Shown here one piece after another: positions 11,275 through 47,134 of a stretch of 64,000 nucleotides of DNA. The notes beneath the pieces were generated by a model. The model did no database searches. It had not been told where the DNA came from and saw only the letters and a list, made by a program, of their open reading frames with translations. Source of the DNA: a virus. Taxonomy: Duplodnaviria > Heunggongvirae > Uroviricota > Caudoviricetes. The stretch covers positions 36,685 to 100,684 of IMG/VR virus record IMGVR_UViG_3300031998_000033; one strand, 5' to 3'. Position 1 is the stretch's first letter; each line of letters opens with the position of its first letter. Position numbers and translations under genes: made by a program.

Positions 11275-11634
11275 ACGACGTCCTACACAATATTCGCGCT
11301 CTGGACGCTGATATTCAATCCAGAACAGCGGATAATGCTTCTTGCGAACAAAGCCGATACGGCGATCGAAATTCTTTCGCGAATCCAGCTTGCGTATGAA
11401 TATATTCCTACATGGTTGAAACCGGCTGTCATTACGTGGAACAAGAGCGAAATAATTTTTTCAAACAAATCCGTCATAAAAGGCTTCGCCACGGCATCGG
11501 ACGCGGCAAGAGGCTATAGCGCGAACTGCGTCGCCGGCGACACCAAGATAACAGTGCGGTTTAAAATACTGCCGTTTATGAAATTTAAAATACCAATATC
11601 CTGGCTGAGGTTCCTCGGCAAAGATAGTAAATAA
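10909..11634 (+). CDS. terL: Large terminase fragment B: Met + IntC1 + middle extein + IntN2
   Basis: Middle extein TTSYTIFALWTLIFNPEQRIMLLANKADTAIEILSRIQLAYEYIPTWLKPAVITWNKSEIIFSNKSVIKGFATASDAARGYSAN aligns to T4 gp17 residues following Walker A. It is followed by IntN2 CVAGDTKITVRFKILPFMKFKIPISWLRFLGKDSK and TAA. Confidence 0.7.
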
Positions 11635-16611: not shown

Positions 16612-16616
16612 GGCTT

Positions 16617-16892
16617 TTACTTTATAAATTTTATAAAACCAGACTTCTGTTTCGGAAGTCTCCTAAGCAACCATAAATATAATGTCTTGTCGTCAAGGCG
16701 TTCAAGCGTGACATAATTGTCCATCACTATCTGTCTTACGCGCGGATCGGGACTCATTGTCATATATTTGCGGCAGATGAATCCGGCGAAATCCTTGAAA
16801 TTTGGATCTTCTATATGACGACGCCAGGTTTCTTCGGACTTCGTCACAAGGATATTGTTCATTGCGTCAAATAGCATAGTCGATCTTGCCAT
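16617..16892 (-). CDS. Hypothetical small protein, 91 aa
   Basis: Track ORF in a compact minus-strand operon. Confidence 0.35.
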   Translation of the reverse strand: MARSTMLFDAMNNILVTKSEETWRRHIEDPNFKDFAGFICRKYMTMSPDPRVRQIVMDNYVTLERLDDKTLYLWLLRRLPKQKSGFIKFIK

Positions 16893-24073: not shown

Positions 24074-24099
24074 ATTGTTACCAAATAGGATTTATCTTA

Positions 24100-26339: not shown

Positions 26340-27011
26340 TCAACCGCCATAGACGGACGCCATATATTCTTGCCATCCGGCCTGCCAGATAAACCACGAT
26401 ATAAGCAGCGATATCAAACCGCCAATATTTCCAGACATAATATTGAACACTCCCCAGCATGCGAAAAGCGCTGCGAATACGCGTCCGACATTCATCGCCG
26501 TCCGTGTCGCGTCCTGTCTGGGCTTTTTCCGGCTAAGCCATGCGCGTAAAATCCGTCCGCCGTCCATGGGAAATCCAGGCAGCAGATTGAAAAATCCAAG
26601 TCCGGCGTTCAGGCCTGAAAGTACGGTAAAAGACTGAAACAAGAAAGCTACGCGACAGAATAGAAATGCGACCACTGAAAATACAACGGCAAGCGCGAGT
26701 GACGTGCCAGGCCCGGCCAGCGCCACGAGCATTTCTTGCTTCGGGACTTTCGGAATACTCTCCAGCTCGGCGCACCCGCCGAGCATTGAAAGCGTTATCT
26801 TCCGCGTTCTGCATCTGTATTTTCTGGCGACAAGACAATGCCCGAACTCATGCGCCAATATTGAAAAACCGAAACCGACTGTAATGAGAACGCCAAACAG
26901 GAAGCCCATGCCGCACATAAGCACCAAAACCGCTATAAATAAAAACGATATGTCGACATATAACGGTATGCCGAATGCAGAGCCCAGCTGAAAAACCTTC
27001 GTTTTAAACAT
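26340..27011 (-). CDS. Site-2 protease family (M50) intramembrane metalloprotease
   Basis: HEFGH zinc motif inside a polytopic membrane protein, with a downstream LPGFPMDGG (LDG-like) motif. 223 aa, no TAG. Confidence 0.65.
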   Translation of the reverse strand: MFKTKVFQLGSAFGIPLYVDISFLFIAVLVLMCGMGFLFGVLITVGFGFSILAHEFGHCLVARKYRCRTRKITLSMLGGCAELESIPKVPKQEMLVALAGPGTSLALAVVFSVVAFLFCRVAFLFQSFTVLSGLNAGLGFFNLLPGFPMDGGRILRAWLSRKKPRQDATRTAMNVGRVFAALFACWGVFNIMSGNIGGLISLLISWFIWQAGWQEYMASVYGG

Positions 27012-27089
27012 CGAATCTCCGTTGTTTTTACGACATCATAATCCGGACATAAACAATCATAGCCTTCGATATAGATTCAGCCCGGTATG

Positions 27090-27398
27090 TCAATCGTCGT
27101 CTTCTCCGTCTTTCTCGGTCGTCTTAGCATAATATGCACCGCAAACAGCCAATAAAAACAACAGCAGCGCCGCCGCCGGCCATAATACGCTTATGAAAAA
27201 AGCGAACCCCGCGCATTTGCAGACTTCGGTTTTTGTATAGTCTTCCCAATCCGGAAAAACAGGACAGAAAAAAATCAGAAAACAAACCAACGCTATAATA
27301 CCATAAATAATCGTAACAGTCGTCATTTCATTTCCCTCCAAAATCTTAAAAAGACGGATCCCGATATGAATACGCGCCGTTGAAAGACAACCGCGCAT
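27090..27398 (-). CDS. Small membrane protein
   Basis: Two hydrophobic helices; probable start at MTTVTIIYG (~27326). Confidence 0.4.
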   Translation of the reverse strand: MRGCLSTARIHIGIRLFKILEGNEMTTVTIIYGIIALVCFLIFFCPVFPDWEDYTKTEVCKCAGFAFFISVLWPAAALLLFLLAVCGAYYAKTTEKDGEDDD

Positions 27399-27774
27399 GC
27401 GAACCGCGCCGTCTTCTGATCTTGCCGTCTATTACATCGCACCAATACCAGTTTTTTCCGTAGCGTCCAATGTAATCGAACTCCGAATGCGGCCCGGCGG
27501 GCTCAGACGCCATAGTTTTGAAAACCGCGTCCGCCGGCAGTTTGGATGTCATACTCCCTTCGGTCCAAGACCCGATAAAAGCTGAATCTGCCCGAACAAG
27601 GCCGGCCAGCCTTCCGGGCTTGATTATTTCTATGACGAAATACCCGTATGAATCGGAACCAACCTGCTGCGTACAGCCTTGCCCGACAAATTCGGGACCC
27701 GTAAATTCACGTTTCTCGGCCTTCTGTCTGATTTCTTCAGACTGGTTTTCCAAAAAATAATGCATTATATTCAA
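27346..27774 (-). CDS. Hypothetical protein, 142 aa
   Basis: Track ORF, no TAG. Confidence 0.4.
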   Translation of the reverse strand: MNIMHYFLENQSEEIRQKAEKREFTGPEFVGQGCTQQVGSDSYGYFVIEIIKPGRLAGLVRADSAFIGSWTEGSMTSKLPADAVFKTMASEPAGPHSEFDYIGRYGKNWYWCDVIDGKIRRRRGSHARLSFNGAYSYRDPSF

Positions 27775-27796
27775 CCTTTTAAATTTTACATAATGA

Positions 27797-28225
27797 TTAT
27801 ACCGTCAGATCAAACATGCCATGGCATTTCCTGTTCGGATACCTCTCAGGCTGAACAGGATCAGGCAAGCCGAGAAGCCTAGCCTTCAATCTACGGCATT
27901 CATTAAGAGACTGTCCGCGCCTGAACGCCTTGGCCAGGACGTAATCGGCGGCGCAGGCCGGAACGCCAGGCAGAAATGACGCGACGGACATATGGAACTT
28001 GAACAAGTCGAAGTCGTCGGCACTATACCCCATCGCGAACTCCACGAGCCTGCTAAACGCCGCCTTTCCGTCCAGGCTTTTTCTAAGCAGCCTTTTCAGA
28101 AAAAAATCCGGAATTTTCAAATAGTCGACTTTAAGCTCGTGGCCGAGAAAATAATAATTTCTGTCCGATCTGAACTCCAGCGCGGAAAGAACCTTATAGA
28201 AAAGTCTTTTAATGAGACTTGCCAT
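27797..28225 (-). CDS. Hypothetical protein, 142 aa
   Basis: Track ORF. Confidence 0.4.
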   Translation of the reverse strand: MASLIKRLFYKVLSALEFRSDRNYYFLGHELKVDYLKIPDFFLKRLLRKSLDGKAAFSRLVEFAMGYSADDFDLFKFHMSVASFLPGVPACAADYVLAKAFRRGQSLNECRRLKARLLGLPDPVQPERYPNRKCHGMFDLTV

Positions 28226-28242
28226 AAAACACGCTCTTCGCT

Positions 28243-28788
28243 TTAGACATTCGATAAGTCAGGATTCGGCGCCGCCGAAAACGGACTTTTGTCTATCATG
28301 ACAAGATCATCCTCGCTCATCTGTAAAATAGGTCTGTCTGTAGGCAACATGACGACGTACAGGCAGAATATCACCTCGTTTGCCCAATTCCTATATATGC
28401 GAGTCTTAAATGGATTAATATGTACTCTGTAATTGCCAGGCGACGCCTCGAACAGGAACTTCACATTATTGAAGCCAAGCATAAGTTCATTATCGAGAAG
28501 GGCTGACATAGTCGCCGAACGATGAACGACCATATCTGGCCATGGCTGATCCGCCTCGACATAGAAGCCGCAGGGAATGACATCCGCCATAAACTTCGCG
28601 CCCCAGATATTACACAGCGTCTTGCCGAATACCATTGTAAACATGTTTTCGTCACGGTCGCAGTCTACGGCGATCAACGGACGAAATTCCGACGTGCCCC
28701 ATGTGGACTCGACGTACGTCTTGGCCGGATCAAGCCCATACTTTTCCACCGCCATGCGCAGAAGACCGTTAAACTCCTTTGTAGTCAT
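28243..28788 (-). CDS. Hypothetical protein, 181 aa
   Basis: Track ORF. Confidence 0.4.
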   Translation of the reverse strand: MTTKEFNGLLRMAVEKYGLDPAKTYVESTWGTSEFRPLIAVDCDRDENMFTMVFGKTLCNIWGAKFMADVIPCGFYVEADQPWPDMVVHRSATMSALLDNELMLGFNNVKFLFEASPGNYRVHINPFKTRIYRNWANEVIFCLYVVMLPTDRPILQMSEDDLVMIDKSPFSAAPNPDLSNV

Positions 28789-29138
28789 TTCTGTCTAGTC
28801 CTCGTCCAGTCTTCGAAAACCCCGTTTGGCAAATGCCTGGTATCCATCCAGGCAAGCCTTACATATGACGGTTCGATACCGTCATATTTCTCAATACACA
28901 GACGTTCTATTAATTCTATGCCTTTATACCGGCTGAGGATGCGTCTTGTTTTATTAAGCCAGTCTACGGCGTCAATGTCACAATAATCAGTATGTTCGGC
29001 ATAGTAAATTTTGGTATTGCCGCTCATAACGGAAAAATACGGCAGTTCGTCATTCAGTCTGAACGTACGCCGTCTGAAAAACATTATTAATGCCGAAACA
29101 AGTCCGACTATGACGAATGTAACTAATGTTAAATTCAT
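28785..29138 (-). CDS. N-terminally membrane-anchored protein, 117 aa
   Basis: N-terminal hydrophobic segment LTLVTFVIVGLVSALIMFF. 4-nt overlap with the downstream gene. Confidence 0.4.
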   Translation of the reverse strand: MNLTLVTFVIVGLVSALIMFFRRRTFRLNDELPYFSVMSGNTKIYYAEHTDYCDIDAVDWLNKTRRILSRYKGIELIERLCIEKYDGIEPSYVRLAWMDTRHLPNGVFEDWTRTRQK

Positions 29139-29139
29139 T

Positions 29140-29586
29140 TTACATATGAATAAAATGACGAACGCTGTCGACGGCCGTCTCCACCGCGGATACGTCTTGA
29201 TCCAAATACATGATCTTTCCCGAAACCGTTTTCACCATCGTAACGGTCTTCTCGCCGACTTTGTTTATTTCTATATCATAGATCTTATCGTCATTCCAAT
29301 TGGTCCACCACCATTCTTTGAACTTTGAGATGTTCTTCCGTCTGCACTTGATTTCAATAATCGGATATGTCTGCTGCTGAAAATATTCGATCTGAAGCGC
29401 GTTCAGTTTGAATGCCATGGGCTTTTCGTAAGTCTTCCAGACATTAAATATTTTATTGTCGTCATCTTTGAAATAATGAAGATACCCGTTCGGAAGTCTG
29501 AACGAGTCGTCCGTATATCCTGATACAACGGCGTCTATGACGGCGCCTTCTGTTTTTCTGTCTTCTTCCATGATCTTCTCCTCCAA
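29140..29586 (-). CDS. Hypothetical protein, 148 aa
   Basis: Track ORF. Confidence 0.4.
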   Translation of the reverse strand: MEEKIMEEDRKTEGAVIDAVVSGYTDDSFRLPNGYLHYFKDDDNKIFNVWKTYEKPMAFKLNALQIEYFQQQTYPIIEIKCRRKNISKFKEWWWTNWNDDKIYDIEINKVGEKTVTMVKTVSGKIMYLDQDVSAVETAVDSVRHFIHM

Positions 29587-29587
29587 A

Positions 29588-30787
29588 TCAGCATCCGCTC
29601 GGACGGTTTAACATGTCCTCGTAAAGCCTCACGGCCGCAAGCGCGATCGCCGGTACTTTCCGGCCGTTGCGGCAGTAGGCCGCGTCTACCAGCTCGGACA
29701 TGAATTGATACCTGTCCTTCCATGAAAACGATATACGCTCATGCTCGTCCAGTTTCTGGCTAAACTCCGCGTACTTGGCATAGTCAAGGTCTACATAGAA
29801 ATAGTGCATCGTATTCGTCATGAAAGCCGGGTTCGGGTTTGTCAATCCAAGCTTTATGACCTTCGACTTATCGAAAACGGAAATCCCCGTCTCCTCCCTC
29901 AGTTCGCGGACGGCCGCGTCGAGCGGGTCTTCGCCCGGCTCGACCATGCCGCACGGAAATTCCTCTATTTCCTCTCCGGCGCCATATCTGAATTGCTTTA
30001 CGGTCAAAACGTTATGGCCTTTCTGAACTATGACAGTCACCCAATCGGGAGCCTTGACAAGAATAGGCTTCAACCCCGTCTCAGCCTCCGCACCGCGTAC
30101 GATATCGAAGATCGGAGTATGCAGGAGAACATGCTCGTCAGCGGATCCGTCTATTTCGGCCAGCGCGTCTTTAACATATTCTTCCGGTCCGCCCGAATTC
30201 ATATACTTCCCGCGGACGGCGGAGGCTGAAACGCCTGCGAACTTCGAATCGATATCGACAGTCTTCAGCTTACCTTCGAACGCCGTATTTTCCTTAAGGA
30301 ACAGCTTCTCGTCGAATTCCGAACCGCTACGGCCGACGACGGCTATGATTCCGCCGCTCTGCGATAGAATATCCTGCCATGCGAACCATGTTTTAAAATT
30401 AAGAAGCTCGTCGACGCCGATGATCGGCCAGAACTCGCGGTCTGGAGAATATCTGTCCAGCTTGATTCGAAGCAGCGTATCTATAAACCGCCAGCTCTTG
30501 ACGGCATGCTCGGTCAGATTTTTACTTCCGGAACAAAGTTCTTTCCGTTTCAATTCCGTATCGTCGATGTATACGGGACAAAGGCCTTTCGTCATGGCCT
30601 TTATTACCTCGATCTTCTCATCAGTACGAAGCCATTGCGTCTTGCCGGCCCGGTGCCAGTCTACGATCGTCGGCGCTATTATGACCGCGTCGACAATATG
30701 CCGTTCAAGAACCTGCTTCACGATCTCGCGGTGCGCCGTAGTAAACGGATCCGCCGTACAGCCGAATATGCCTATTTTCTCTTTCAT
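29588..30787 (-). CDS. Bifunctional NMN/NaMN adenylyltransferase plus Nudix hydrolase (similar to KVP40 NatV)
   Basis: N-terminal (H/T)xGH nucleotidyltransferase motif GIFGCTADPFTTAHREIV. C-terminal Nudix box GMVEPGEDPLDAAVRELREETGI. 399 aa, no TAG. Confidence 0.7.
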   Translation of the reverse strand: MKEKIGIFGCTADPFTTAHREIVKQVLERHIVDAVIIAPTIVDWHRAGKTQWLRTDEKIEVIKAMTKGLCPVYIDDTELKRKELCSGSKNLTEHAVKSWRFIDTLLRIKLDRYSPDREFWPIIGVDELLNFKTWFAWQDILSQSGGIIAVVGRSGSEFDEKLFLKENTAFEGKLKTVDIDSKFAGVSASAVRGKYMNSGGPEEYVKDALAEIDGSADEHVLLHTPIFDIVRGAEAETGLKPILVKAPDWVTVIVQKGHNVLTVKQFRYGAGEEIEEFPCGMVEPGEDPLDAAVRELREETGISVFDKSKVIKLGLTNPNPAFMTNTMHYFYVDLDYAKYAEFSQKLDEHERISFSWKDRYQFMSELVDAAYCRNGRKVPAIALAAVRLYEDMLNRPSGC

Positions 30788-31149
30788 TCGTCATCGCCTC
30801 CGAAAAGATCATCGTCATCCAGCGCATAGTATTTGATCACCGCTTCTAACCTGCGCGAAACCTCTTCTAGCTTTTCCGCTGTTTTTTCGCATTTATCGCA
30901 TCTACATCCATTAGACGCTAAGCCTTTCGATTCGCTTGAAACAATCATTAAATATATTGCGAAAATGCCTAATAATACAGGCAAATAATACCTTGTCAGC
31001 TTCATATTCCAAAACAATTCCCGGAAAAGCTCCGCCGAAAATATTTCAGGCAACGACAAGTTTTTAATAGCGCATACAAGCGACGTCATAACCCAAAAAA
31101 CAACGGCGGCCGCTGAAGACAATACCAATATGGACAATGCAATATTCAT
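30784..31149 (-). CDS. Small membrane protein, 121 aa
   Basis: Two transmembrane segments and an acidic tail. Overlaps neighbours by 4 nt. Confidence 0.4.
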   Translation of the reverse strand: MNIALSILVLSSAAAVVFWVMTSLVCAIKNLSLPEIFSAELFRELFWNMKLTRYYLPVLLGIFAIYLMIVSSESKGLASNGCRCDKCEKTAEKLEEVSRRLEAVIKYYALDDDDLFGGDDE

Positions 31150-31502
31150 TCAGGTCTCCCGGGGTTTTCGTCTTCGCCGGTATTTTCTTTCAGTTTTCTC
31201 ATACACCCGGCCGCCTCTTTTTTCCGCAGCCATCCGATTCCGATCGCCGATATAACAACGCATGCGATCGCCAGCGCGATATACGGACAATGAATAACCA
31301 GCATGATAGCTAAATACGCGCCGCCGGCGGTTATCAGCCCGACGAGAGTAAACGCAAACGCGGCGAATATAACAACCTGCGCAATACCTAAAAGCAATTT
31401 AAAACCATACTCGCATGGACTCATCAGTTCGGCCGGCGACCAAACAGACATCCATCTTGGAAATTCGGCAAACCAGTCAAGAACTTTGAATATGCGTTTC
31501 AT
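31146..31502 (-). CDS. Small membrane protein, 118 aa
   Basis: Hydrophobic core. Sits upstream of the SPFH gene across an intergenic hairpin. Confidence 0.4.
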   Translation of the reverse strand: MKRIFKVLDWFAEFPRWMSVWSPAELMSPCEYGFKLLLGIAQVVIFAAFAFTLVGLITAGGAYLAIMLVIHCPYIALAIACVVISAIGIGWLRKKEAAGCMRKLKENTGEDENPGRPE

Positions 31503-31540
31503 CTTCGCGTCTTAATTCTCTGTTCCGCCTTTGCATTGTC

Positions 31541-31571
31541 GAAATCCGCGTTTCGAAACGCGGATTTCGAC
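31541..31571. other. Perfect 13-bp inverted repeat (hairpin) between convergently arranged gene ends
   Basis: gaaatccgcgttt-cg-aaacgcggatttc. Confidence 0.5.
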
Positions 31572-31592
31572 TGCTGCAAACCGCGCGGCGCT

Positions 31593-32396
31593 TTACTTGT
31601 CGGCCTGAATCAGCAGGCTTGAAGGCTTGCCGTCGAACACAAGCGTAGTCGGCATGACGCCGTTCCATTTCTCGATGGCGTTCAGCATCATGACGTCCTT
31701 GTTCTTGTTGAGGGCCTCGGCCCTGATCTGGATCGCCTCGGCCTCGGCTTTCGCCGTCACGAGCTTCTGCTTGGCCTCCTCCTCGATCTCGGCGGTCTTG
31801 TTCTTGGCCTCTAGCGCTCTCTGCTGCGCCACCTGCTTCGACTCGATCGCCTTCTCGAACACGTCGCTGTAGTCGATGTTCATGATGTTGATCTGCTTGA
31901 CCGAAACCGGCTTGTCCGCGACAAGCCCTATGACCTTCTCCGAAATGGCGGCCGTCGCCTTCTCGCGGTTGTTCACCAGCTGCTCGGCCTCCCACTGCCC
32001 GACGACGTCCTTCACCGCCGACTGGACCGCCGGCTCTATGATGACCGACGCGTAGCGGTCGCCGTACTTCACATGCAGGTCCACGAGCTCGGCCTTCTTG
32101 ACGGCGTACGTCACCGCGATCTCGAAATCGGCCTGCTGCATGTCTTTCGTGTACGCCTGCATTTTGTAGTTGACGCGGACGTCGCGGAGCGTATAGCACT
32201 TCATCGACCCGCCGACGGGATTCACGAAGTACAGCCCGGGGTCGAGCACGGGTGTGTCGACCTTGCCGAACCAAGTCTTAAACCCGGCCTCATCGGCGTC
32301 GATCTGCCCACATCCAGACATTAAAACGACCATAACCGCGCTTAAAACAGCAAATACAATATTCTTCATACGACTTTCCTTTCTATAGTTGTTCAT
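31593..32396 (-). CDS. SPFH/band-7 (prohibitin/stomatin-like) lipoprotein
   Basis: Signal peptide plus lipobox LMSGC. SPFH core with a coiled-coil E/A/K-rich C-terminus. 267 aa, no TAG. Confidence 0.6.
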   Translation of the reverse strand: MNNYRKESRMKNIVFAVLSAVMVVLMSGCGQIDADEAGFKTWFGKVDTPVLDPGLYFVNPVGGSMKCYTLRDVRVNYKMQAYTKDMQQADFEIAVTYAVKKAELVDLHVKYGDRYASVIIEPAVQSAVKDVVGQWEAEQLVNNREKATAAISEKVIGLVADKPVSVKQINIMNIDYSDVFEKAIESKQVAQQRALEAKNKTAEIEEEAKQKLVTAKAEAEAIQIRAEALNKNKDVMMLNAIEKWNGVMPTTLVFDGKPSSLLIQADK

Positions 32397-32413
32397 AATA
32401 TGATTTTACCATG

Positions 32414-32442
32414 TTAAAAAACGGCAGAGAATCCTCTGCCGT
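32414..32442 (-). terminator. Rho-independent terminator
   Basis: cggcagag-aatcc-tctgccg followed by T6 on the minus strand after the TGA at 32480. Confidence 0.55.
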
Positions 32443-32479
32443 CAAAAAGCCGCCGTCTTAGAACCTATATGCGGAATTT

Positions 32480-33166
32480 TCAGAACGAAAAAGCCAAACA
32501 CGCGCAAATGGCATGGCCGGGACTCCAGTCGTGTTCTTTTGCGGATTTTACCTCGATCAAACGATAGAACAATTCGGCCGAACAGTTCTCCATCAAACTG
32601 AAAGCGGCGCCGAAATCCGTCCAAAACTGGCAGAACTTATCGTTTTTCCTTATATATCGGTCTTTCGAGCCTTCGTCAAAATACCATTCATAAGCCATGA
32701 ACAGCTTTATGTCTTTGACGGCGCCGGCTTCGCACAATACGGGAGTATACGCCTTCGTAAGGTTTCTATACCGGAAATACGGCCTTTCGCCTTCTAAATC
32801 CCGTATAACGAATCTCGACCTGTTCAGAACCTTGAACCCGCAGAACACGTCATGCACGAGAATATTAGCGCCCGGCCTGTTATCGCGCCTATACCTCGTG
32901 TCGGAACCGTTCCGCAGCAATACTATATCGTCCTGAACGCCGACAGACATCCATCTAAGCAGCGCATAGTCGACGAATACCGTCGTATGGAACTCGTCGA
33001 TCTTTTTCGCCGTCTGGGACTGATCGACGCCTACTCTAGCTTCTTCTGAAAAACCGACATTAAACTGGTCAACTTTCTTCGAAGCCTGCACCGTATTCCA
33101 TGACTCTATACTGTTCGCAGACGCGCAATATGCCGTAGCCAAAATAATGTATAAAAAACGTTTCAT
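32480..33166 (-). CDS. Secreted or outer-membrane hypothetical protein
   Basis: Signal peptide MKRFLYIILATAYCASA. 228 aa, no TAG. Confidence 0.45.
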   Translation of the reverse strand: MKRFLYIILATAYCASANSIESWNTVQASKKVDQFNVGFSEEARVGVDQSQTAKKIDEFHTTVFVDYALLRWMSVGVQDDIVLLRNGSDTRYRRDNRPGANILVHDVFCGFKVLNRSRFVIRDLEGERPYFRYRNLTKAYTPVLCEAGAVKDIKLFMAYEWYFDEGSKDRYIRKNDKFCQFWTDFGAAFSLMENCSAELFYRLIEVKSAKEHDWSPGHAICACLAFSF

Positions 33167-33196
33167 AGCTTAAAATTCTCCGACATACGGCTATAA

Positions 33197-33859
33197 TTAT
33201 CTGGCGTTCCGAATGCGTTTCCGGCCTGAAACGACGCTTAAACCCTGGCCCTGATACCCGGTCGGAAAAATCCTCGGAACCCTGTCGAGGCCTGTATCGG
33301 GAAAATCATATTCATATCCGTTCAAAAACAACATGCTAGTCAACATCGGAACTCTGATAAAAAGCGTAGCGGCTAATTCATCGCGGATTTCGGCATCCGG
33401 CATTCCATGTGTCGACTTAGACACGCGGGCAAGCGTATTTTCTCTGAATTCCTCATATTCTTCGAATCCCATAGCCAGCTGATCTATGGAAATCTTGAAC
33501 TTCAATGCCTTTGTCATATCCGGAAGAAACTCTATCGGAACGGTAGAATATACAACAGCGATCAGCTTCTCTCTGCAGAGGCGGCTCTGACCCTTCATCA
33601 TTTCCGGCGCCATTTCGGTAAACCTGCGCGTCTTGACGTCATCCGGCGCCGGATACATCGATATCGATGTAAGTATCCTACGACAGAACTCCTCTTTATC
33701 AGAATCGGCAAGGCGCTGAAAAACTGAATTGAAAACCTGGCCGTCTTTCGCAGAAGGTCCTATTTTAGCAAGCCATTCAAACCTCTGAAGCCTGTTCGCA
33801 TCAGATCCCGCCGATACAAGCGCGGTTAAAATTAAAACGACAGCATATAACATCTTCAT
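33197..33859 (-). CDS. Secreted hypothetical protein
   Basis: Signal peptide MKMLYAVVLILTALVSAG. 220 aa. Confidence 0.45.
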   Translation of the reverse strand: MKMLYAVVLILTALVSAGSDANRLQRFEWLAKIGPSAKDGQVFNSVFQRLADSDKEEFCRRILTSISMYPAPDDVKTRRFTEMAPEMMKGQSRLCREKLIAVVYSTVPIEFLPDMTKALKFKISIDQLAMGFEEYEEFRENTLARVSKSTHGMPDAEIRDELAATLFIRVPMLTSMLFLNGYEYDFPDTGLDRVPRIFPTGYQGQGLSVVSGRKRIRNAR

Positions 33860-34018
33860 GACTAATTTTTATCCTTTCTTTAACATATTTATTTCAAAAC
33901 CTGATCTATATACGGTGAGAACCGCCATGGTGACACGGCATTTGGCGATCTTCTTTATCGTATCCTCTTTTCGTTTTTAAAACATCCGCAGTTAGGCGAA
34001 CGCGCGGGCCTGAATTTA

Positions 34019-34441
34019 TCATCGTCCATTAACGGCCTTTCTCACCATTCTGTTCCACCACCTCACAGCGGCCTTCCTCGTCTTGAACACGGCGCCGTCG
34101 CCGCCGATCCGCGGCACGGAACCCAGTCCCCACCATTCGAAACCTTCGGTCGCTATCAGGCATTCCCTGCTGTGGGGAATGTCGCCGGTCTTCCTGAGCG
34201 CGCCCTTACGGCCGTAATCGCGCGTGTGCTCGATAACATACCAAAGACCTGACCACGGCGCCTTTTCATATTCAGGATCGTAGTCGTGGCAATTTCCTTC
34301 ATCGTCCTCCACCCTGATGTGGGGCACAGCTCCGCAAAACGGACACGGGTCGAAGCCGTCGGGGTTGCCGTAGTTCGGCCTGCGCTTTCTGTCCTTCGTC
34401 TGGAAATCAAGGCACAGCTGGTTTAAGTCTTTTTCCATCAT
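34019..34441 (-). CDS. Zinc-finger protein (Lar-like CPFCG motif), 140 aa
   Basis: CPFCGAVPH...H..C Zn motif. Function speculative. Confidence 0.35.
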   Translation of the reverse strand: MMEKDLNQLCLDFQTKDRKRRPNYGNPDGFDPCPFCGAVPHIRVEDDEGNCHDYDPEYEKAPWSGLWYVIEHTRDYGRKGALRKTGDIPHSRECLIATEGFEWWGLGSVPRIGGDGAVFKTRKAAVRWWNRMVRKAVNGR

Positions 34442-35016
34442 CTTGCTTTCTCTTTGATCTGAAACCCAAGCTTTGCCGCTAAGTCTTCCGGCGACTTAGG
34501 ATCAAGCTCTTCATACAGCTTTGCTATAGAGTAATTTGCTCTACGCTTTCTGTCATATACTGCCGGATCAAACGCCATCTCCGCTCTTCCAGGCCCATTT
34601 TCGCAGAAGTCTTTCAGCAGAGACTTGGCAGCAAGCTCATGAGAAAGGTCTCCATCTGCCCAAGACCCGCCTAATGAGTATCCTGATGACCAAGGATAAT
34701 AACAGTCATCCCAACTCAGACTGGCATACCATGTGCCGTCTTTCCGCTTGCCGTGATTTAGCGTGACAAAGCCGTCATACAAATGAAGCTTTGCATATAG
34801 AGTCTTCATCACCATCAGCCAGCTACCTTTGCGAAGCTTTTTCTTCTGCGCTGCGCAACCATGTTCAAGCGCATTTGCCGCACTGACAGAGTCTTCGCAT
34901 ACGTTCACTAGGTTAAGCAGCGGCTCCAACCGGCTTTCAAACTTGACTAGCATCTCTAGCTGGCCTTTGTCTATGCGCTCTAATGCGTCGGCAATGTTTT
35001 TCATATATGCAGTCAT
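34438..35016 (-). CDS. Hypothetical protein, 192 aa; paralogue of the N-terminal half of the 35371 gene
   Basis: Shares ...DGTWY..SLSWDDC... and RA(E/K)M..DPAV..R.R(K/R)ANYS.A(K/R)LYEELDPKSPEDLAAKLG with 35371..36714. Confidence 0.45.
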   Translation of the reverse strand: MTAYMKNIADALERIDKGQLEMLVKFESRLEPLLNLVNVCEDSVSAANALEHGCAAQKKKLRKGSWLMVMKTLYAKLHLYDGFVTLNHGKRKDGTWYASLSWDDCYYPWSSGYSLGGSWADGDLSHELAAKSLLKDFCENGPGRAEMAFDPAVYDRKRRANYSIAKLYEELDPKSPEDLAAKLGFQIKEKAR

Positions 35017-35064
35017 ATCGTCTCCTCACGCTTCCGCGCATGCCTTAGTCCTCCGGCTAACGCT

Positions 35065-35352
35065 TCAGCATCCGCCAACAGCCCGCCTCGGAGCCTTTTC
35101 TGGCACTTCATCCAGCAAGTCACAAACTTGCTTCTCTAGCTCGGCGTTCTTCGCTTCGAGCTTCCGAAGCCGTTTTACTGCTTCGTTAACAGCGGCCAGC
35201 TCTCCCGGAACTTCATCTTCATGGAGCTCTGACTTGTCAAGATGAAGCCATTCAAGCGCTTCGCAGAGTTCTTCAGTAGTGAGATCCTCAGGTTCGACAA
35301 TAGCTATCTTGCCGTCTCTCATAGCTTCCACTTTTGCTTTGCCGTCACTCAT
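35065..35352 (-). CDS. Hypothetical acidic coiled-coil protein, 95 aa
   Basis: Track ORF. Confidence 0.35.
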   Translation of the reverse strand: MSDGKAKVEAMRDGKIAIVEPEDLTTEELCEALEWLHLDKSELHEDEVPGELAAVNEAVKRLRKLEAKNAELEKQVCDLLDEVPEKAPRRAVGGC

Positions 35353-35370
35353 GCCTCAGCCTCCATCCAT

Positions 35371-36714
35371 TTACATACCCGGGTTTCCGTCCGCGCCGCA
35401 ATAGCACCCCGGAGTGCAGCCGCACATCATTCCCAGGCCGGGCATCATCTTCAGCCTGCGCCTGAGCTCGGCATCGTGCGCAGCCGAGCCGGTGGTCCGC
35501 TCGATCATCTTCTGCACGATGCCGTCGATGGTCGTCGGGTTCTCTTTCTTCCATTCTTCCATGCGCTTCCGCATCTCCCTCTTGAAAGACTGGCGGGCGT
35601 CTTCGGTCCTGATCCTGGCCTCTTCGTGGTCGTCCGCGCCGAGTACCCGCACGGCCTTCGCGACGCCGATTCCGGCGTTAAAGTGCGGAAAATCGTCTCC
35701 GATCCCATGCCCGAGGCCGATGATGGAGTTGACTACGCGGTCAAAAAGCCTGTCATCATCATATTCGTACGTCACCTGGTCGAGGACGACGAACTTGTCC
35801 ACTGACGCCGAGAAGATCTCCTCGAAGTGGTCAAGGCAATGCTTGACGATTTCCGGGTTGGTGTAGACATGTTCATAGCTGAAGTGCCTGGTGTTTTTGG
35901 ACTCTTCGTCGCCCTTTTTCGGCTTATACATGCACGGAGTCTCGCCGAGGACGCACCCTGGGACGCCGAGTTTCTCTTCGAGCTCCCGGAGCTTGGCCGC
36001 GTCCTCCTCGCTCGGCCCCTTGCCGTAGCGCTTCCAGGCCTCGGCCTCGGTATGCGGGTTTATGAGCACGACCTTCGCTTTGGCCTTCTTCACGATCTTT
36101 CTCAGCTCGCCCACCGCGTGGGAATCGAAATGCCCGCGCTCCTTGTCGTAGGAGATGGGGTAGTCGCCGAGCGCGTTTTTGGGATCGACGAATATGACGT
36201 TGACATTCGGGAGCTCGCCGGGCTTCACTTCGGTCCCGACTTTCGCCTTCTCGGTTTCCCCCTCGGCCTTCGCCTTCTTCTCCCTGACGGCATATCCCAG
36301 CTTGGCGGCCAGGTCTTCGGGGGACTTCGGATCGAGCTCCTCGTACAGCCTGGCCACGGAGTAGTTGGCCTTGCGCTGTCTTTCCCCCACGGCCGGATCG
36401 AGGTGCATCTTCGCCCTTCCGGGGCCTTCATAGCAGAAGTCCTCCACCGTCGACTTGGCCGCGAGCGCGCGGTCGGTCGTCTTACGGGCGAAAGACGCCT
36501 CCGCCAGCGTGTAGTAGGCCCACGGCGCCTTGGGGCAGTCGTTCCACCTGATACCGACGTACCACGTGCCGTCGCGGCGTGCGCCGCGTCTTATCGTGAC
36601 GTAACGGTCGTACGAGCGCAGCTTTTCGTACAGGGCGTTCGCGATTGTCGTCCAGCCGGCGGCGCGGAGCTTGGGCTTCCCGGCGGTTTCTGTCTTGGTT
36701 TTATCATGCTTCAT
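35371..36714 (-). CDS. Hypothetical two-domain protein, 447 aa
   Basis: N-terminal domain paralogous to 34438..35016. C-terminal domain with a GxG-rich Cys tail. No TAG. Confidence 0.5.
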   Translation of the reverse strand: MKHDKTKTETAGKPKLRAAGWTTIANALYEKLRSYDRYVTIRRGARRDGTWYVGIRWNDCPKAPWAYYTLAEASFARKTTDRALAAKSTVEDFCYEGPGRAKMHLDPAVGERQRKANYSVARLYEELDPKSPEDLAAKLGYAVREKKAKAEGETEKAKVGTEVKPGELPNVNVIFVDPKNALGDYPISYDKERGHFDSHAVGELRKIVKKAKAKVVLINPHTEAEAWKRYGKGPSEEDAAKLRELEEKLGVPGCVLGETPCMYKPKKGDEESKNTRHFSYEHVYTNPEIVKHCLDHFEEIFSASVDKFVVLDQVTYEYDDDRLFDRVVNSIIGLGHGIGDDFPHFNAGIGVAKAVRVLGADDHEEARIRTEDARQSFKREMRKRMEEWKKENPTTIDGIVQKMIERTTGSAAHDAELRRRLKMMPGLGMMCGCTPGCYCGADGNPGM

Positions 36715-36715
36715 G

Positions 36716-36820
36716 TCTCAGCCTCCAGTCGATGCAGCGCTTCAGGTACTCGACGTACTCGCTGTCACGGCACATGCCTTTACCTTCGACGTCCGATATA
36801 ATCTTTTTCATAATTAGATT
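36716..36820 (-). pseudogene. 34-codon ORF duplicating the C-terminal tail of the pncB-like gene
   Basis: MKKIISDVEGKGMCRDSEYVEYLKRCIDWRLRHEA versus PncB-like C-terminus SKGMCRDNDYVDYLKRTIDWRLKYE. TGA overlaps the ATG of the 35371 gene. Confidence 0.4.
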
Positions 36821-36855
36821 ATATCACGTAATTAATAGTTTGTATATTTTTATTT

Positions 36856-37728
36856 TTACTTTAATCTTCCACGTATAAAAGTAGAATTTGGACAGTTTTT
36901 AGCATATACTTCTATATTTCCATCTGTCCACCAATGACTACCTTTTATCGTGTTAGCTTGTTTTCTATGCCACTCAGCAAATCTTTTAGGATCATTTTTC
37001 TTAATATTCAAAATGCCTTCTTTTGATTTGCTTGCATTCAATTTTAATTTCAAACACACTTCATTAGAAAATGGTAATCGTCCTTTAATGAATCCGGTCG
37101 GACAATCAAATTGAAAAACTTCTACTGTACCATTATTCCACCAATGCTTTCCAATGCTGGCTTTACCAATATTTTTCTTATGCTCCTCGGATAACTTCAT
37201 CCCCATATGCGATTTACGTATTTTATCTCGCCATTGTTTTCCCTTTATGGGATCATTAGCAATTTTTCTAATTGTTTCTTTAGCTTTAGAATTTGCTTTC
37301 TATCTCGCACGTTTCTATACAATAGCTTCTTTAGACATAAAGTCTTCTGCGTTTTTGCCATACATTGGATTATTACATCCAGACATATCAGCTGAATGCG
37401 TTTTAGAAAATTCCTGTTTTATTTTTTCGTATGTTCTAGCAGTTATTTGTATGTCTTTGCAAATTGCGAATTTCCAAACTGCTGCAACAGCCGCGTTATA
37501 ACGTCTATCATTGTTTCCATATTCGCTTTGATACCATTTTGCCAAAAGCCTATGCGCAATGAAATGTTCACGCGCAGTCAATGCAACAATGTTATTTGGA
37601 TCATGTTCAAGCTCTGGATAAAGTGATCTCATCTTAATATGATGATATTCACAATAACAAATTGAACGATCAATCTTGTTAGTTAGTCTTTTCTAAATAA
37701 GACTATTATATATCTTCTTGTAGTTCAT
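36856..37728 (-). CDS. HNH homing endonuclease with NUMOD3-like DNA-binding repeats, about 290 aa, 3 in-frame TAGs
   Basis: HNH core CYCEYHHIK...PELEHDPNNIVALTAREHFIAH. C-terminal HWWNNGTVEVF...CPTGFIKGRL and HWWTDGNIEVY...CPNSTFIRGRL. Track ORFs 37315..37632 and 36856..37206 are one frame joined by two TAGs. The extension to ATG ~37726 crosses a third. Confidence 0.6.
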
Positions 37729-37845
37729 GTTTAGTTTCCTTTATTTAAGTGACATTGACGTGTCACATTTATTGTTTACTCTTCTTAAATACAAAAATAG
37801 CGCTAGCCGTCAAACTAGCGCTTGTAGCATGAACTACAAATTTAT

Positions 37846-39069
37846 TTACTCGTACTTCAATCTCCAATCAATTGTACGTTTCAAATAATCAACATAGTCA
37901 TTATCTCTACACATACCTTTTGAAGGTGTATTTGAAAGTTTTGCGACTGGCTTTCCATTGCACTCAACCATCTTGAATACAATGTTAAGTGGATCTACTG
38001 GCAGATCGCAAGTCAAAAATGTGCCAATTCCAAATGCCACATTCGTCCTGTCCTTGAAGTGCTTCCTTATAGCAGTCGCCTTTTCAAAGTTCAGCGAATC
38101 CGAAAACAAGAGAGTCTTGGTCTTAGAATCAATGCCAAGCTTCTTGTAGTAGTCAAGCATCAGCTCACCCCACCAGATAGGGTCACCAGAATCATGACGG
38201 ACTCCGCTGAACAACGTAGCGAAGTTCTTGTCGAAATCCTTCAAGAAGACTTCAGTTCCAATCGTGTCAGTAAGAGCGATGCCCAAGTCGGTCTTGTAAA
38301 CCTCATTCCAGACTTTCATGATCTCGGCATTAGTGTAGGACTTCTCAAGGCCCGGCTTCTGCTGCACACCCATATAAAGCTCATGTGCCTGCGTACCAAT
38401 TGGCTTTGTGCCATATTTATGCGCCAGCCAAACATTCGAAGTCCCGACAAAGCCTGGAATATTCTCATTGACGAGATACTTGATAAGCCACTCCTGCATC
38501 TTCTTCGAGTAGCGACGGCGGGTGCCGAACTCCGAAAAGACCCCAATATCGTAAACACCGTCCTTGACTTTGCTGAATTTCTCGATAGTCCTCTTCTGAA
38601 ACTCGATATCGAGCTCATCAAGCCTGTCTGCATACTTCATCCTGAACCAGACTTCCGAGACGATCGCAAGAATAGCTATCTCGTAGAGTGACGTATCAAG
38701 CCAAGTACCTTCGGCCTCGATTGCAAGGCCGCAATCATTATAGGTCTGCATTCCTATCTCATTGATATGGATGTCTTCGCGGTTAGGATGCCAATTCTTG
38801 AGATTATTGACGATGTATGCAGGCGGTAGCCATCTAAAATCGATTTTTAATCCAGTAATCTCTTCTTTAGAGAAAGTAAGCTTGCAGAACCAGTCAATCT
38901 GGTCCTTTATTTCTTTTACCATTTCTGGCGTAAAACGCACATCGGAATTACGTACCTTCAAGGCCCAGCGCGCGGTGTAATCACCGTAATACCGGTCAAT
39001 GACCGCGCCCATATTAGGCTTATAGGCATCTATATCTGTTAAATTAGTTATAATTGGTGGAAGTATCAT
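37846..39069 (-). CDS. pncB: Nicotinate phosphoribosyltransferase (PncB)
   Basis: TDAYK, FSEFGTRRR, VGTSNV...IGTQAHE, GIALTDTIG, GVRHDSGDP, FGIGT.LTCD and VECNGKPVAKLS all co-linear with E. coli PncB. 407 aa, no TAG. Confidence 0.8.
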   Translation of the reverse strand: MILPPIITNLTDIDAYKPNMGAVIDRYYGDYTARWALKVRNSDVRFTPEMVKEIKDQIDWFCKLTFSKEEITGLKIDFRWLPPAYIVNNLKNWHPNREDIHINEIGMQTYNDCGLAIEAEGTWLDTSLYEIAILAIVSEVWFRMKYADRLDELDIEFQKRTIEKFSKVKDGVYDIGVFSEFGTRRRYSKKMQEWLIKYLVNENIPGFVGTSNVWLAHKYGTKPIGTQAHELYMGVQQKPGLEKSYTNAEIMKVWNEVYKTDLGIALTDTIGTEVFLKDFDKNFATLFSGVRHDSGDPIWWGELMLDYYKKLGIDSKTKTLLFSDSLNFEKATAIRKHFKDRTNVAFGIGTFLTCDLPVDPLNIVFKMVECNGKPVAKLSNTPSKGMCRDNDYVDYLKRTIDWRLKYE

Positions 39070-39698
39070 TACAGCAATTCTCCGTTAAGGTATTTCTTTT
39101 CTCTGTCTTCTATCAATGTTATGATTTTACCTGGGATTTCCTCGTCCATCGGGAAAAGCGAACACGTCGGCGGATGGTCATGCCCGTCCATCGCTATAAC
39201 CAGATAGCAGTCGTCGGACGCATCCGACGTAAAATTGAATTTTTTCTTCCACTTGTCCGGCGTATAAGGCTGGCCGATGACTTTGACCGGAACGAATTTT
39301 CTGCACATATACGCCCAGGCGTAGTCTCCGACGTCGAATTTTATCGCGTCGGGCGGCGTCCCAGCATAGGTTCCGTCCCGCCAGTCTGAAGAAAACGGAG
39401 AATACGCCAACGGCTTGCCGTCTTTCGTATAGGACCATTCCTGCTCGTATATAGGCGACCAGACATCGTTTTCGAACAGCATGCGGTTGACTCGGACTTC
39501 CCTGACGAAAAACCCGAGAAGCCGCGGCCCCCAGTCGCATTCGCAGAAATCCGCGACGCATTTGGCAATCGCCTTCTCCGCGTTCTTCTTGGTGCTGTAG
39601 ACGCCGAAGTCTTTTTTGTCTACCGCCCGCGCAAAGCCGCGGCAATGCCTGCCCGATTCATTCGTCAGCCTTGTCGCAATATATACTTTTCCAGCCAT
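39069..39698 (-). CDS. Hypothetical protein, 209 aa
   Basis: Track ORF, no TAG. Confidence 0.4.
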   Translation of the reverse strand: MAGKVYIATRLTNESGRHCRGFARAVDKKDFGVYSTKKNAEKAIAKCVADFCECDWGPRLLGFFVREVRVNRMLFENDVWSPIYEQEWSYTKDGKPLAYSPFSSDWRDGTYAGTPPDAIKFDVGDYAWAYMCRKFVPVKVIGQPYTPDKWKKKFNFTSDASDDCYLVIAMDGHDHPPTCSLFPMDEEIPGKIITLIEDREKKYLNGELL

Positions 39699-39883
39699 AT
39701 ATTGATTATGCCGCCGTCTCGGAAGTAAATATATTTGAATTGCGTCTACTAAAGGAAGACGGCGATGCCGTGCAAATCTACGATCCGTATGCAGGCAGCA
39801 GTTATTCCGTAGGTTCAGAAGGCGTCGTTGCTAATTAAGTTGAATGCGCTAGGAAGCCGAATAAATAAAAAACAGGAGACAAC

Positions 39884-40508
39884 TGTGAAGAAGACATACA
39901 CGAAGAAGCAGATCCAGGAAGCCATCGCCTACTGGAAGAAGCAGCTCGCGAAGGGCAACTACAGGAAAGTCAACGAGGCGTTTGAGTATTCTGGCGAAAA
40001 TCCTTACGACATCGACAACTGCAAGGCTTCTGGCTGGGTAATGTATTTCAGGAAAAACGGCGAAGCATACTTGCCGGTTGACTATACTGTCAGTCATAGG
40101 CTGCATCCGGAAGACGATCCCAGCCCGCACGCGGCGGATATTCGCGCGACCGACGAGCAGATGAATCGCGTACGTCTCGCGCAGGCTAACGCTAGCACTG
40201 TCGCCAGCCGGTCGTGCAGGTTCGTTCTGGACGGGCGCAGAGTGTCAGCTACGTTTTTTGCGACGCGTGACGCCGCGCAAAGGGCGGCGGACGCTTCCGA
40301 AATGGACGGCGGCGGAGCCCAGTCCTGCGCGTACATCTGGGACTGCGTCAACCTCGGCTATGTATCTGAAAACGATGTCGGCGATCTCGAAAAGACCGAC
40401 GTCGAGATTATAGACACCTATATTTGCGGAAATGGCGCTGTCATTTTCGGACAAGATGCGCTTGAGGACAACGCGGACGAATGGGAACGCGACACGCGTC
40501 GCCTATGA
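39884..40508 (+). CDS. Leader-family protein 4 (VKKTYTKKQIQEAIAYWKKQLAKGNYRKVNE...), about 207 aa
   Basis: GTG start at ~39884 after an aggaga RBS; the track ORF begins further upstream. TGA at 40506. Confidence 0.5.
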
Positions 40509-45277: not shown

Positions 45278-45706
45278 TTAGCCTAAACCGAAACTGGCTT
45301 CAGCCGCGGGCTCAGGCCCGGCGTCTAATTCAGACTCCTCGTCGCCGGCTTCGTCGCCGCCTCCGAGATCGCCTTCATTGCCGCCTTCATCGCCGCCTTC
45401 GCCTTCACCCTCGCCGCCTTCTCCGCCTTCGGCTCCACCGGCTTGTTTCGGTGACGCAGCGGCCGATGCGGCTTTCTCCTCAGCCTCAACATCCTTTTTG
45501 AGACGGATCGGCGACTTAAAGTCAACAGGCGGATTCTCCTCAGAGACCAGGTCGGCGAAATAATCAGCTATGGCCACCAGCTGCTTTTCGCGGATAAGCT
45601 CGCGGAAGTTATCTTCAATGTCCTTATCCGACATGCCGAGATACTTACGCATGACCGTTATCTTAGAGATCTCATCCTAGTCGGCGAACGCCTTGTATAT
45701 CGTCAT
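45278..45706 (-). CDS. Acidic Gly/Glu-rich small protein (possible prohead core / internal head protein), about 142 aa, 1 in-frame TAG
   Basis: ATG ~45704. Low-complexity GGAEGGEGGEGEGEGGDEGG tail. Immediately downstream of the portal gene. Confidence 0.4.
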
Positions 45707-45769
45707 CTTGGCGTCGACAAGCTTCTGAATCTCGTACAGGTCATACAGCACGGGCTTGACGAACTCGAT

Positions 45770-47122: not shown

Positions 47123-47134
47123 ATGCCTGTCCCA

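Follow-up and report, generated by a model that had tools for sequence, protein, structure and literature searches.

Can a phage rebuild the nicotinamide adenine dinucleotide (NAD) pool of an infected cell, and by which route would it do so? Bacterial anti-phage systems commonly lead to a loss of NAD. The question is raised by two genes on a stretch of 64,000 nucleotides of a virus of the Caudoviricetes (IMG/VR record IMGVR_UViG_3300031998_000033, positions 36,685 to 100,684); this whole stretch is called the window, and all positions below refer to it. A preliminary description had proposed that the two genes form an NAD salvage module, and at the level of gene identities, folds and motifs this proposal was borne out. 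One gene encodes the nicotinate phosphoribosyltransferase PncB, and the other encodes a fusion of a NadD-type adenylyltransferase with a Nudix domain resembling ADP-ribose pyrophosphatases (ADPRases). Together, the two proteins would probably catalyse the first two committed reactions on the way to NAD by the deamidated, or Preiss-Handler, route and would also clear ADP-ribose, and would thereby keep NAD available. The two genes and the domains of the fusion protein are as follows:

37846-39069, minus strand: pncB, nicotinate phosphoribosyltransferase, 407 amino acids, ATG start, TAA stop, no in-frame TAG
29588-30787, minus strand: NadD-Nudix fusion gene, 399 amino acids, ATG start, TGA stop, no in-frame TAG
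30152-30787, minus strand: putative NadD-type (nicotinate mononucleotide, NaMN) adenylyltransferase domain, residues 1 to about 212
29588-30142, minus strand: ADP-ribose-pyrophosphatase-like Nudix domain, residues about 216-399 plus the TGA stop

The first gene encodes PncB

The 407 amino acid protein matches the Pfam families NAPRTase_N (E 2e-19) and NAPRTase (E 8.5e-69), and it scores above the curated NCBIfam cutoffs of TIGR01514 (384 bits versus 269.55) and PRK05321 (422 versus 379). It can be aligned end-to-end with the solved PncB structures 1yir (residues 6-399) and 3os4 (residues 4-399), and over the full length also with 4hl7, the source organisms being P. aeruginosa, Y. pestis and V. 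cholerae. Co-linearity with bacterial PncB, including the catalytic motifs, had been claimed before, and a loss of catalytic residues had been named as the result that would speak against it. The claim is confirmed by the curated cutoffs and the full-length alignment, and the alignment to the solved structures revealed that all four motifs, FGTRRR, GTxAHE, RHDSGDP and FGIGT, have been retained. In the four phage PncBs compared, the four motifs do not vary, including G225-T-x-A-H229-E230, R291-H-D-S-G-D-P297 and F346-G-I-G-T350. H229 is aligned to the histidine of GTMAHE in 1yir and of GTQAHE in 3os4; this conserved histidine corresponds to His219 of Salmonella PncB, the site of ATP-driven autophosphorylation. 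The match to the Nampt family PHROG 448 is weak and covers part of the protein (E 1.3e-13, compared to 8.5e-69 for NAPRTase). Judged by these comparisons the gene is a true pncB, and a nicotinate-specific, ATP-stimulated activity is predicted for its product.

The second gene encodes a NadD-Nudix fusion protein

The preliminary description had also predicted the joining of a nucleotidyltransferase to a Nudix domain. This was verified by the Pfam matches of the N-terminal part to CTP_transf_like (28.8 bits, cutoff 21, residues 7-151) and of the C-terminal part to NUDIX (57.7 bits, cutoff 21.1, residues 250-352), and by a complete Nudix box.

The best NCBIfam family for the N-terminal domain is NadD (TIGR00482, 64.7 bits over residues 7-197). 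The equivalog cutoff of 112.45 is not reached, and the domain is best described as a divergent relative of NadD, not as a curated equivalog. The AlphaFold model of residues 1-215 has a predicted local distance difference test score (pLDDT) of 91.6 and a predicted template modelling (TM) score of 0.89, and in a Foldseek comparison with the PDB the best 50 matches were all bacterial NadD enzymes (target TM-scores 0.57-0.76, probability 1.00). The predicted structure thus has a NadD fold. The motifs of the domain read G-C-T-A-D-P-F-T-T-A-H and V-S-A-S-A-V-R, versus GxFDPxHxGH and ISSTxxR in NadD. In 65 homologues, which are 47-67% identical to the fusion protein of the window, G9, D13-P-F-T16-x-A18-H19 and S187-A188...R192 are invariant; the motif has drifted away from that of NadD, yet it is shared by the members of the family.

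The Nudix box (G280-MVEPG-E286-DPLDAAV-R294-E-L-R-E298-E299-T-G301-I) fits the consensus GX5EX7REUXEEXGU. Its key residues G280, E286, R294-E295, E298-E299 and G301 are invariant in the 65 homologues, and so is P318, a proline 16 residues past the box, which is a signature of the ADPRase subfamily. The best PDB sequence matches are the T. thermophilus ADPRase 1v8i, NUDT5 and NudE. When the AlphaFold model of the full-length protein (pLDDT 89.9) was used, the best 50 Foldseek matches of the Nudix half were pyrophosphatases of ADP-ribose or ADP-sugars (target TM-scores about 0.6-0.84), including T. thermophilus Ndx4, M. tuberculosis Rv1700, NUDT5 and NudE (best about 0.8). Since none of the 65 homologues departs from the catalytic motifs in either domain, both activities are apparently under selection.

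Two further identities were considered for the protein and rejected. A NAD-cap hydrolase of the NudC type does not fit, because the protein lacks the NudC-type motif SQPWPFPxS and has ADPRases as its neighbours in fold. A regulator of the NrtR type would consist of a Nudix-like domain and a C-terminal winged-helix DNA-binding domain (PMC2330246); here an intact Nudix box is combined with a NadD domain on the N-terminal side, and a DNA-binding domain was not detected.

The fusion had been likened to NatV of phage KVP40, and this comparison is half right. The order of the domains is the same, a nucleotidyltransferase at the N-terminus and an ADPRase-like Nudix domain at the C-terminus. However, the adenylyltransferase belongs to another family: the nicotinamide mononucleotide adenylyltransferase (NMNAT) domain of NatV is reported to align with that of NadR (PMC13464706) and is of the NadR/NadM type (see also PMC9503650), whereas the domain in the window is of the NadD type. 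Five NadM-Nudix models of the PRK05379 group aligned mainly or only to the Nudix half (residues 176-304 at most), with 19-27 bits versus cutoffs of 346-449. NadM-Nudix structures were found neither among the 34 PDB sequence matches nor among the best 50 fold matches, and a tblastn search of 50,697 phage records yielded no KVP40 match to the fusion at E <= 1e-5, stand-alone Nudix genes alone being matched. "NatV-like" would therefore be the wrong label for this fusion, and "nadD" entries in gut jumbo phages can be bifunctional.

The two genes belong to a recurrent phage unit

The fusion family comprises at least 120 clusters at 90% identity. At 50% identity and E <= 1e-30 there are 67 clusters, about 45 of which are full-length fusions. 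The loci compared are listed here with the identity of their fusion proteins to that of the window:

L001: 57%; NADAR, GNAT, PncB, NadD-Nudix, NadE, isochorismatase
L011: 54%; GNAT, PncB, NadD-Nudix, NadE, isochorismatase
L012: 49%; NadD-Nudix, NadE, isochorismatase; the contig begins just upstream of the fusion, so that any pncB would lie beyond its edge
L013: 53%; GNAT, truncated PncB, NadD-Nudix, NadE
L004: 67%; PncB and NadD-Nudix about 7 kb apart, no adjoining NadE
L006 (the window): 100%; PncB and NadD-Nudix 7 kb apart, no adjoining NadE

The gene order PncB, NadD-Nudix, NadE is found in L001, L011 and L013, and in L012 NadE follows directly after the fusion. The NadE of L001 passes TIGR00552, and the isochorismatase-family protein of L001 is PncA-like, as its best matches are solved nicotinamidases. 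A scan of IMG/VR with the alignment of the fusion proteins uncovered three loci of more distant phages with a split form (L008-L010). NadE, PncA, NadD and Nudix recur in these loci, with NadD and Nudix as separate genes, and PncB is also present in L009 and L010. The motifs of the stand-alone phage NadD proteins are canonical (HIGH in L009, TPGH in L010). As NadD and Nudix recur as separate genes in L008-L010, the fusion links partners that already co-occur. The contigs of distant fused homologues are too short to show the neighbourhood, apart from L094, where a PncB fragment lies directly upstream. Taken by their sequence assignments, the members of the recurrent phage unit have five predicted functions, PncA, PncB, NadD, NadE and an ADPRase-type Nudix enzyme, and the pair in the window appears as a reduced form of this set, in which, as in the closest relative L004, only the first two enzymes are encoded locally.

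Origin and mobility of pncB

The preliminary description had regarded the PncB sequence as host-derived and proteobacterial and had proposed a phylogeny with bacterial PncBs. This view was not upheld. The nearest cellular PncBs, searched with one genome per GTDB species, are those of metagenome-assembled genomes of rumen Spirochaetia (53-54% identity), followed by Lachnospiraceae and other Clostridia (49-52%), compared to 41% for the P. aeruginosa enzyme and 38% for the Y. pestis enzyme. As the patterns for the cellular scan had been taken from the phage proteins, the scan was biased to their relatives; the direct comparison of identities is free of that bias. By neighbour joining, the four phage PncBs were grouped into a single clade, which is sister to a group of Spirochaetia and Bacillota and in which the PncB of the window is a long branch. 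For annotation, the phage PncB clade is therefore not proteobacterial. In many Bacillota pncB loci pncA, pncB and nadE adjoin, and one has pncB-nadE-nadD, an arrangement similar to that in the phages. Since the nearest cellular PncB is only about 50% identical, neither a recent donor nor a host can be named.

Several features next to pncB point to mobility:

37799-37822, minus strand: hairpin resembling a terminator (10 pairs, then a run of T), 24 nt past the pncB stop, a match of a consensus scan only
36856-37740, minus strand: HNH homing endonuclease gene, 3 in-frame TAG, just downstream of pncB
36704-36811, minus strand: 3'-end remnant (about 31 codons and a stop) of a second pncB allele, located past the endonuclease gene and before the gene that comes next

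If TAG is translated as Gln, the endonuclease gene is a single open reading frame (ORF) of about 290 amino acids. Its matches are the homing endonuclease family phrog_655 (E 2.8e-29) and the HNH endonuclease family phrog_12434, and it has none in Pfam. Promoter-like sites flank the gene (37733-37705 and 36846-36818). The remnant has 83% identity over 30 amino acids to the C-terminus of the L001 PncB (tblastn), and its translation, ISDVEGKGMCRDSEYVEYLKRCIDWRLRHEA followed by a stop, is nearer to the C-termini of L001, L004 and L011 than to that of the window's own PncB. The PncBs of L004 (L004:1829-3049) and L011 (L011:8553-9770) are 93.1% identical, in contrast to 55.2% for their NadD-Nudix proteins, and the PncB of the window is 58% identical to both, a pattern that speaks for a recent lateral transfer of pncB between divergent phages. 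From the high identity of PncB in phages with divergent fusion proteins, the endonucleases and the allele remnant, it appears that these phages have exchanged pncB with one another, and homing endonucleases may have been the driving force. In L009 a GIY-YIG endonuclease lies between NadE and NadD, and in L013 IS605/TnpB genes lie beside the truncated pncB.

Both genes lie in a TAG-free block of a recoded phage

The window belongs to a T4-like phage in which TAG is a sense codon. When TAG is read as Gln, a family-B DNA polymerase of 975 amino acids (phrog_262, E 5.9e-146), a T4-type portal protein with four in-frame TAG (phrog_213, E 6.3e-70) and a large terminase are encoded. The identical fusion protein was found on a metagenomic contig of 277,570 bp, a length above the 200 kb by which "NAD-jumbo phages" are defined in size, and the phage is a large gut phage. 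No DNA similar to positions 28000-40000 was detected by megablast in 50,697 GenBank phage records.

TAG is used as a sense codon in the structural genes: 11 long ORFs, for example 295-3408, 45278-47134 and 61456-63999, contain 46 in-frame TAG, i.e. 7.8 per 1,000 codons. No tRNA gene, and hence no suppressor tRNA, was found within the 64-kb window. The two NAD genes are part of the following block:

26340-39698, minus strand: TAG-free block of 18 co-oriented genes, about 13 kb, with both NAD genes inside

At the rate of the 11 recoded ORFs about 29 in-frame TAG would be expected in the 3,793 codons of the block versus none observed, and therefore their absence is not due to chance. The stop codons of the 18 genes are TAA (nine) and TGA (nine), never TAG, and the only TAG-carrying gene between 26340 and 39698 is that of the HNH endonuclease. 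The earlier statement that both genes are free of TAG is thus correct. Borges et al. (bioRxiv 10.1101/2021.08.26.457843) reported that recoded stops are concentrated in structural and lysis genes. Solely from the lack of TAG we infer that both genes may be expressed early, before a switch to TAG read-through.

Proposed role of PncB and the fusion protein

Gene identities, folds, conserved motifs and neighbourhoods, which were observed directly, lead us to infer the following substrates and reactions. PncB would convert nicotinate, phosphoribosyl pyrophosphate (PRPP) and ATP to NaMN, and the NadD-type domain of the fusion would adenylylate NaMN to nicotinate adenine dinucleotide (NaAD). The Nudix domain would cleave ADP-ribose to AMP and ribose-5-phosphate, and the latter could be recycled to PRPP by the host. 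NadE, for the step from NaAD to NAD, and PncA, for the conversion of any nicotinamide to nicotinate, would have to come from the host or from the part of the genome outside the window. In this way NAD would be kept available for replication, and it could also be rebuilt after defences of the NADase type have cleaved it to nicotinamide and ADP-ribose. A role in counter-defence is plausible. A nicotinamidase and an ADPRase steadily accompany the synthesis enzymes in the phage loci, which fits a recycling of both NADase products.

Several observations weigh against this proposal. A general metabolic boost accounts for the same facts. The NadD domain stays below the equivalog cutoff (64.7 versus 112.45 bits), and the replacement of H-x-G-H by T-x-A-H could mean that its substrate is a different one. 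On the Nudix domain the models for NudE (38.7 versus 169) and YffH/AdpP (25.1 versus 79.55) are below their cutoffs as well, and the substrate is deduced from similarity. Homologues of NadE and PncA were not detected by tblastn or with six-frame, family-specific hidden Markov models (HMMs; best E about 0.9) in the 64-kb window that was searched, with about 213 kb of the contig lying outside it. Among the best 120 of 2,992 NadE matches, none lies on a contig with the length of one of the large contigs of the window's clade (277,570, 125,776 and 120,010 bp), while ten such agreements in length were found for other clades; with 120 of the 2,992 matches compared, the absence in the window's clade is suggestive only. 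With no NadE found for the window or its clade, the pathway would be incomplete without the host. Finally, a stretch of 7 kb with ten unrelated genes and a mobile endonuclease separates pncB from the fusion gene, and an operon of the two is not obvious.

Comparison with known systems

Clusters of this kind are known from a genomic survey, in which 174 "NAD-jumbo phages" from animal guts were described, including pncB-nadD-nadE clusters as a Preiss-Handler pathway (Li et al., 2024, Microbiome, PMC11662467). As in these phages (e.g., Kuafu_71), large gut phages are concerned and pncB as well as nadD are encoded, and relatives of the window's fusion have PncB, NadD and NadE in a row as published. 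In contrast, Nudix does not occur in that paper, the associated nicotinamidase is not described as part of the cluster, and no nadE was found in the 64-kb window, so that the complete pathway by which the survey defined its phages is perhaps lacking.

Phage NAD reconstitution has been reported to counter NADase defences in three cases, NARP1 and NARP2 (bioRxiv 10.1101/2024.02.11.579819) and NARP3 (PMC13464706). The pair in the window resembles NARP2 and NadV and NatV of KVP40 (bioRxiv 10.1101/2024.02.11.579819; PMC9503650), where a phosphoribosyltransferase and an adenylyltransferase-Nudix fusion are also encoded by a large phage. However, NARP2 leads from nicotinamide via nicotinamide mononucleotide (NMN) to NAD, whereas the enzymes of the window would lead from nicotinate via NaMN to NaAD and would need NadE; NadV and an NMNAT of the NadM/NadR type are replaced by PncB and NadD. 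Because these families differ, adenylyltransferase and ADPRase seem to have been joined in the window's fusion independently, by convergence. NARP1 (Adps and Namat) and NARP3 (PnuC and NadR) also restore NAD with phage-encoded proteins, and NARP1 handles ADP-ribose, too. However, NARP1 keeps ADP-ribose intact and re-attaches nicotinamide, while the window's Nudix domain would break it down to AMP and ribose-5-phosphate; NARP3 depends on the import of nicotinamide riboside, and the enzymes and the chemistry of both pathways are entirely different from those of the window.

The same enzymes adjoin in Clostridia and Lachnospiraceae, for example as pncA-pncB-nadE (L024, L033) or as pncB-nadE-nadD (L039), and the NadE and PncA of these clusters are 38-48% and 32-39% identical to the phage versions. 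Unlike the phage genes, they are cellular housekeeping genes without a Nudix fusion, and their NadD shares only about 26% identity with the N-terminal domain of the phage protein.

The phage NAD genes listed by Iyer et al. (2022, PMC9503650) are NadV, NadM-Nudix and NadR only, and the paper on NARP1 and NARP2 mentions neither pncB nor NadD. In the literature searched we found no description of a NadD-Nudix fusion and no PncB-based pathway tested against defences; neither the bifunctional NadD-ADPRase protein nor the occurrence of PncA and ADPRase alongside the synthesis genes appears to have been reported there. It is possible, if rather doubtful, that these gut jumbo phages possess a fourth, deamidated type of NAD reconstitution that recycles both NADase products. 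PncA and PncB would route nicotinamide to NaMN, the ADPRase would return ADP-ribose to ribose-5-phosphate and PRPP, and NadD and NadE would finish the synthesis. The NadD-ADPRase fusion would then be a functional coupling that arose independently of NadM-Nudix, and the window would represent a reduced, host-dependent version, with pncB shuffled between phages by homing endonucleases.

Alternative explanations

The genes might instead form a general auxiliary metabolic module that supplies NAD for the NAD-consuming enzymes of the phage and a long jumbo phage infection, or that enables the phage to use nicotinate of the rumen where the host's own salvage is poor. Such clusters were read in this way by Li et al. 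(2024, PMC11662467), who report that the NAD pathways of phage and host complement each other in some cases. The window is without PncA, which would be needed to reuse the nicotinamide freed by NADases, no defence-related evidence was found in it, and its reduced pair is explained equally well by a general supply role. However, the recurrence of an ADPRase-type Nudix enzyme and a nicotinamidase with the synthesis enzymes in relatives fits a recycling of NADase products more specifically than it fits plain overproduction, and a NADAR-domain gene is located near the module in L001. Such a general role is a serious possibility, if not the one we favour, and both explanations can hold together. 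A different substrate of the Nudix domain is unlikely on the present evidence. The domain could act mainly on cyclic ADP-ribose isomers, i.e. immune signals, on NAD(H) or NaAD with a function in pool regulation, or on NAD-capped RNA. The equivalog models of NudE and YffH are not reached, relatives such as NudE hydrolyse several ADP compounds, the Nudix domain fused to NadM has been proposed to regulate NAD levels (Iyer et al., 2022, PMC9503650), and other phage enzymes are reported to degrade Thoeris signals in a 2026 preprint (bioRxiv 10.64898/2026.05.28.727677). Nevertheless, all 50 best structural neighbours are ADP-ribose or ADP-sugar pyrophosphatases. Also, P318, the signature of the ADPRase subfamily, is invariant, and the NudC-type motif is missing.

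An amidated route like that of NARP2, in which nicotinamide and NMN are used and NAD is made directly without NadE, would account for the absence of NadE and PncA from the window. The long branch of the window's PncB within the phage clade and the altered T-x-A-H, which could go along with a change of specificity, might be seen in the same light. It is nevertheless quite improbable: the PncB equivalog model is passed and the Nampt match is weak, T-x-A-H is common to relatives that have NadE next door, and the fold matches of the adenylyltransferase are all NadD enzymes that prefer NaMN. Least probable is that the genes are recently captured host passengers without a role in infection. The region of pncB is indeed mobile, with a homing endonuclease and the remnant of a second allele adjoining, and pncB is 93% identical between two phages with fusion proteins of 55% identity. 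This idea has already been largely refuted by the conservation data, because the nearest cellular PncB is just 54% identical and the phage PncBs have their own clade, the fusion family falls into dozens of clusters at 50% identity without variation in the catalytic residues, and both ORFs are intact and avoid TAG.

Other genes of the window

Two further genes directly adjoin the NAD genes:

29140-29586, minus strand: unknown protein, 148 amino acids, directly downstream of the fusion gene
39069-39698, minus strand: unknown protein, 209 amino acids, its stop overlapping the pncB start codon

The 148 amino acid protein, which has no match in Pfam or PHROG, has been kept downstream of the fusion in L004 (50% identity, two genes further down) and in L001 (36%), where it is encoded directly after the fusion, between it and NadE. 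The 209 amino acid protein occupies the same place upstream of pncB in L004 (57% identity); its one weak Pfam match, DUF7336, is below the cutoff. For both proteins, membership in the module is uncertain.

The genes between pncB and the fusion gene mostly have no match in Pfam and PHROG, and none of the matches ties them to NAD metabolism. They include a SPFH/Band-7 protein (31593-32396, minus strand), which also matches a PHROG "lipoprotein" family; at the corresponding position L004 encodes a protein of 856 amino acids with a major vault protein shoulder domain (L004:6994-9564). A CPFCG zinc-ribbon protein (34019-34441, minus strand) is 79% identical in L004 and weakly matches a PHROG for Lar-like restriction alleviation (E about 1e-3). 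The neighbouring genes 34438-35016 and 35371-36714 (both minus strand) share a domain with 54% identity over 138 amino acids and have no Pfam or PHROG match.

In relatives, further genes occur near the NAD module (L001:4350-5294, L001:17002-18171, L010:5014-6096 and L009:13918-16199), i.e. those for a NADAR-domain protein, for adenylosuccinate-synthetase homologues (L001, L010, L012), and for a T4-type RNA ligase with a metallophosphoesterase after it. None of these is present in the window, where tblastn and six-frame HMM searches for NADAR, GNAT, adenylosuccinate synthetase, the major vault protein and Nuc_deoxyri_tr2/Metallophos had no result. The only homologue that these searches brought up is a YqeY-like gene (7326-7826, minus strand), which adjoins a gene for a transporter of the major facilitator superfamily (5922-7112, minus strand). 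The nearest families of the latter, all below their cutoffs, are monocarboxylate transporters of the L-lactate and oxalate/formate type, and it is conceivable that it takes part in the uptake of nicotinate, a monocarboxylate.

The phage also encodes a ClpP-like protease (16024-16662, minus strand) and a homologue of peptidase M50, a site-2 protease (26340-27035, minus strand). The region of the large terminase (9782-14745, plus strand) is broken up, and two segments, about 10807-11634 and the start of 12994-14745, end in an intein-like "...GILSHN" with a weak Intein_splicing match. Endonuclease-like ORFs lie beside these segments, one similar to DUF559/MTES_1575 (9782-10912) and one with DUF7487 (11609-13027). 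A TAG-free ORF of 700 amino acids (21989-24091, minus strand) has no Pfam match and lies in a 2-kb stretch with 63% G+C, compared to about 47-50% in its flanks, a composition that suggests a foreign origin.

Implications for phage NAD metabolism

This type of module is already known from a genome survey, and our analysis provides a sound annotation of it and not a new mechanism. Three phage pathways that restore NAD have been tested experimentally, and none of them proceeds via nicotinate, the Preiss-Handler route. If the two genes, with NadE and PncA in relatives, do restore NAD during infection, they would add a route that depends on the supply of nicotinate and partly on enzymes of the host, and the fusion of an adenylyltransferase with an ADP-ribose hydrolase would have occurred twice, independently.

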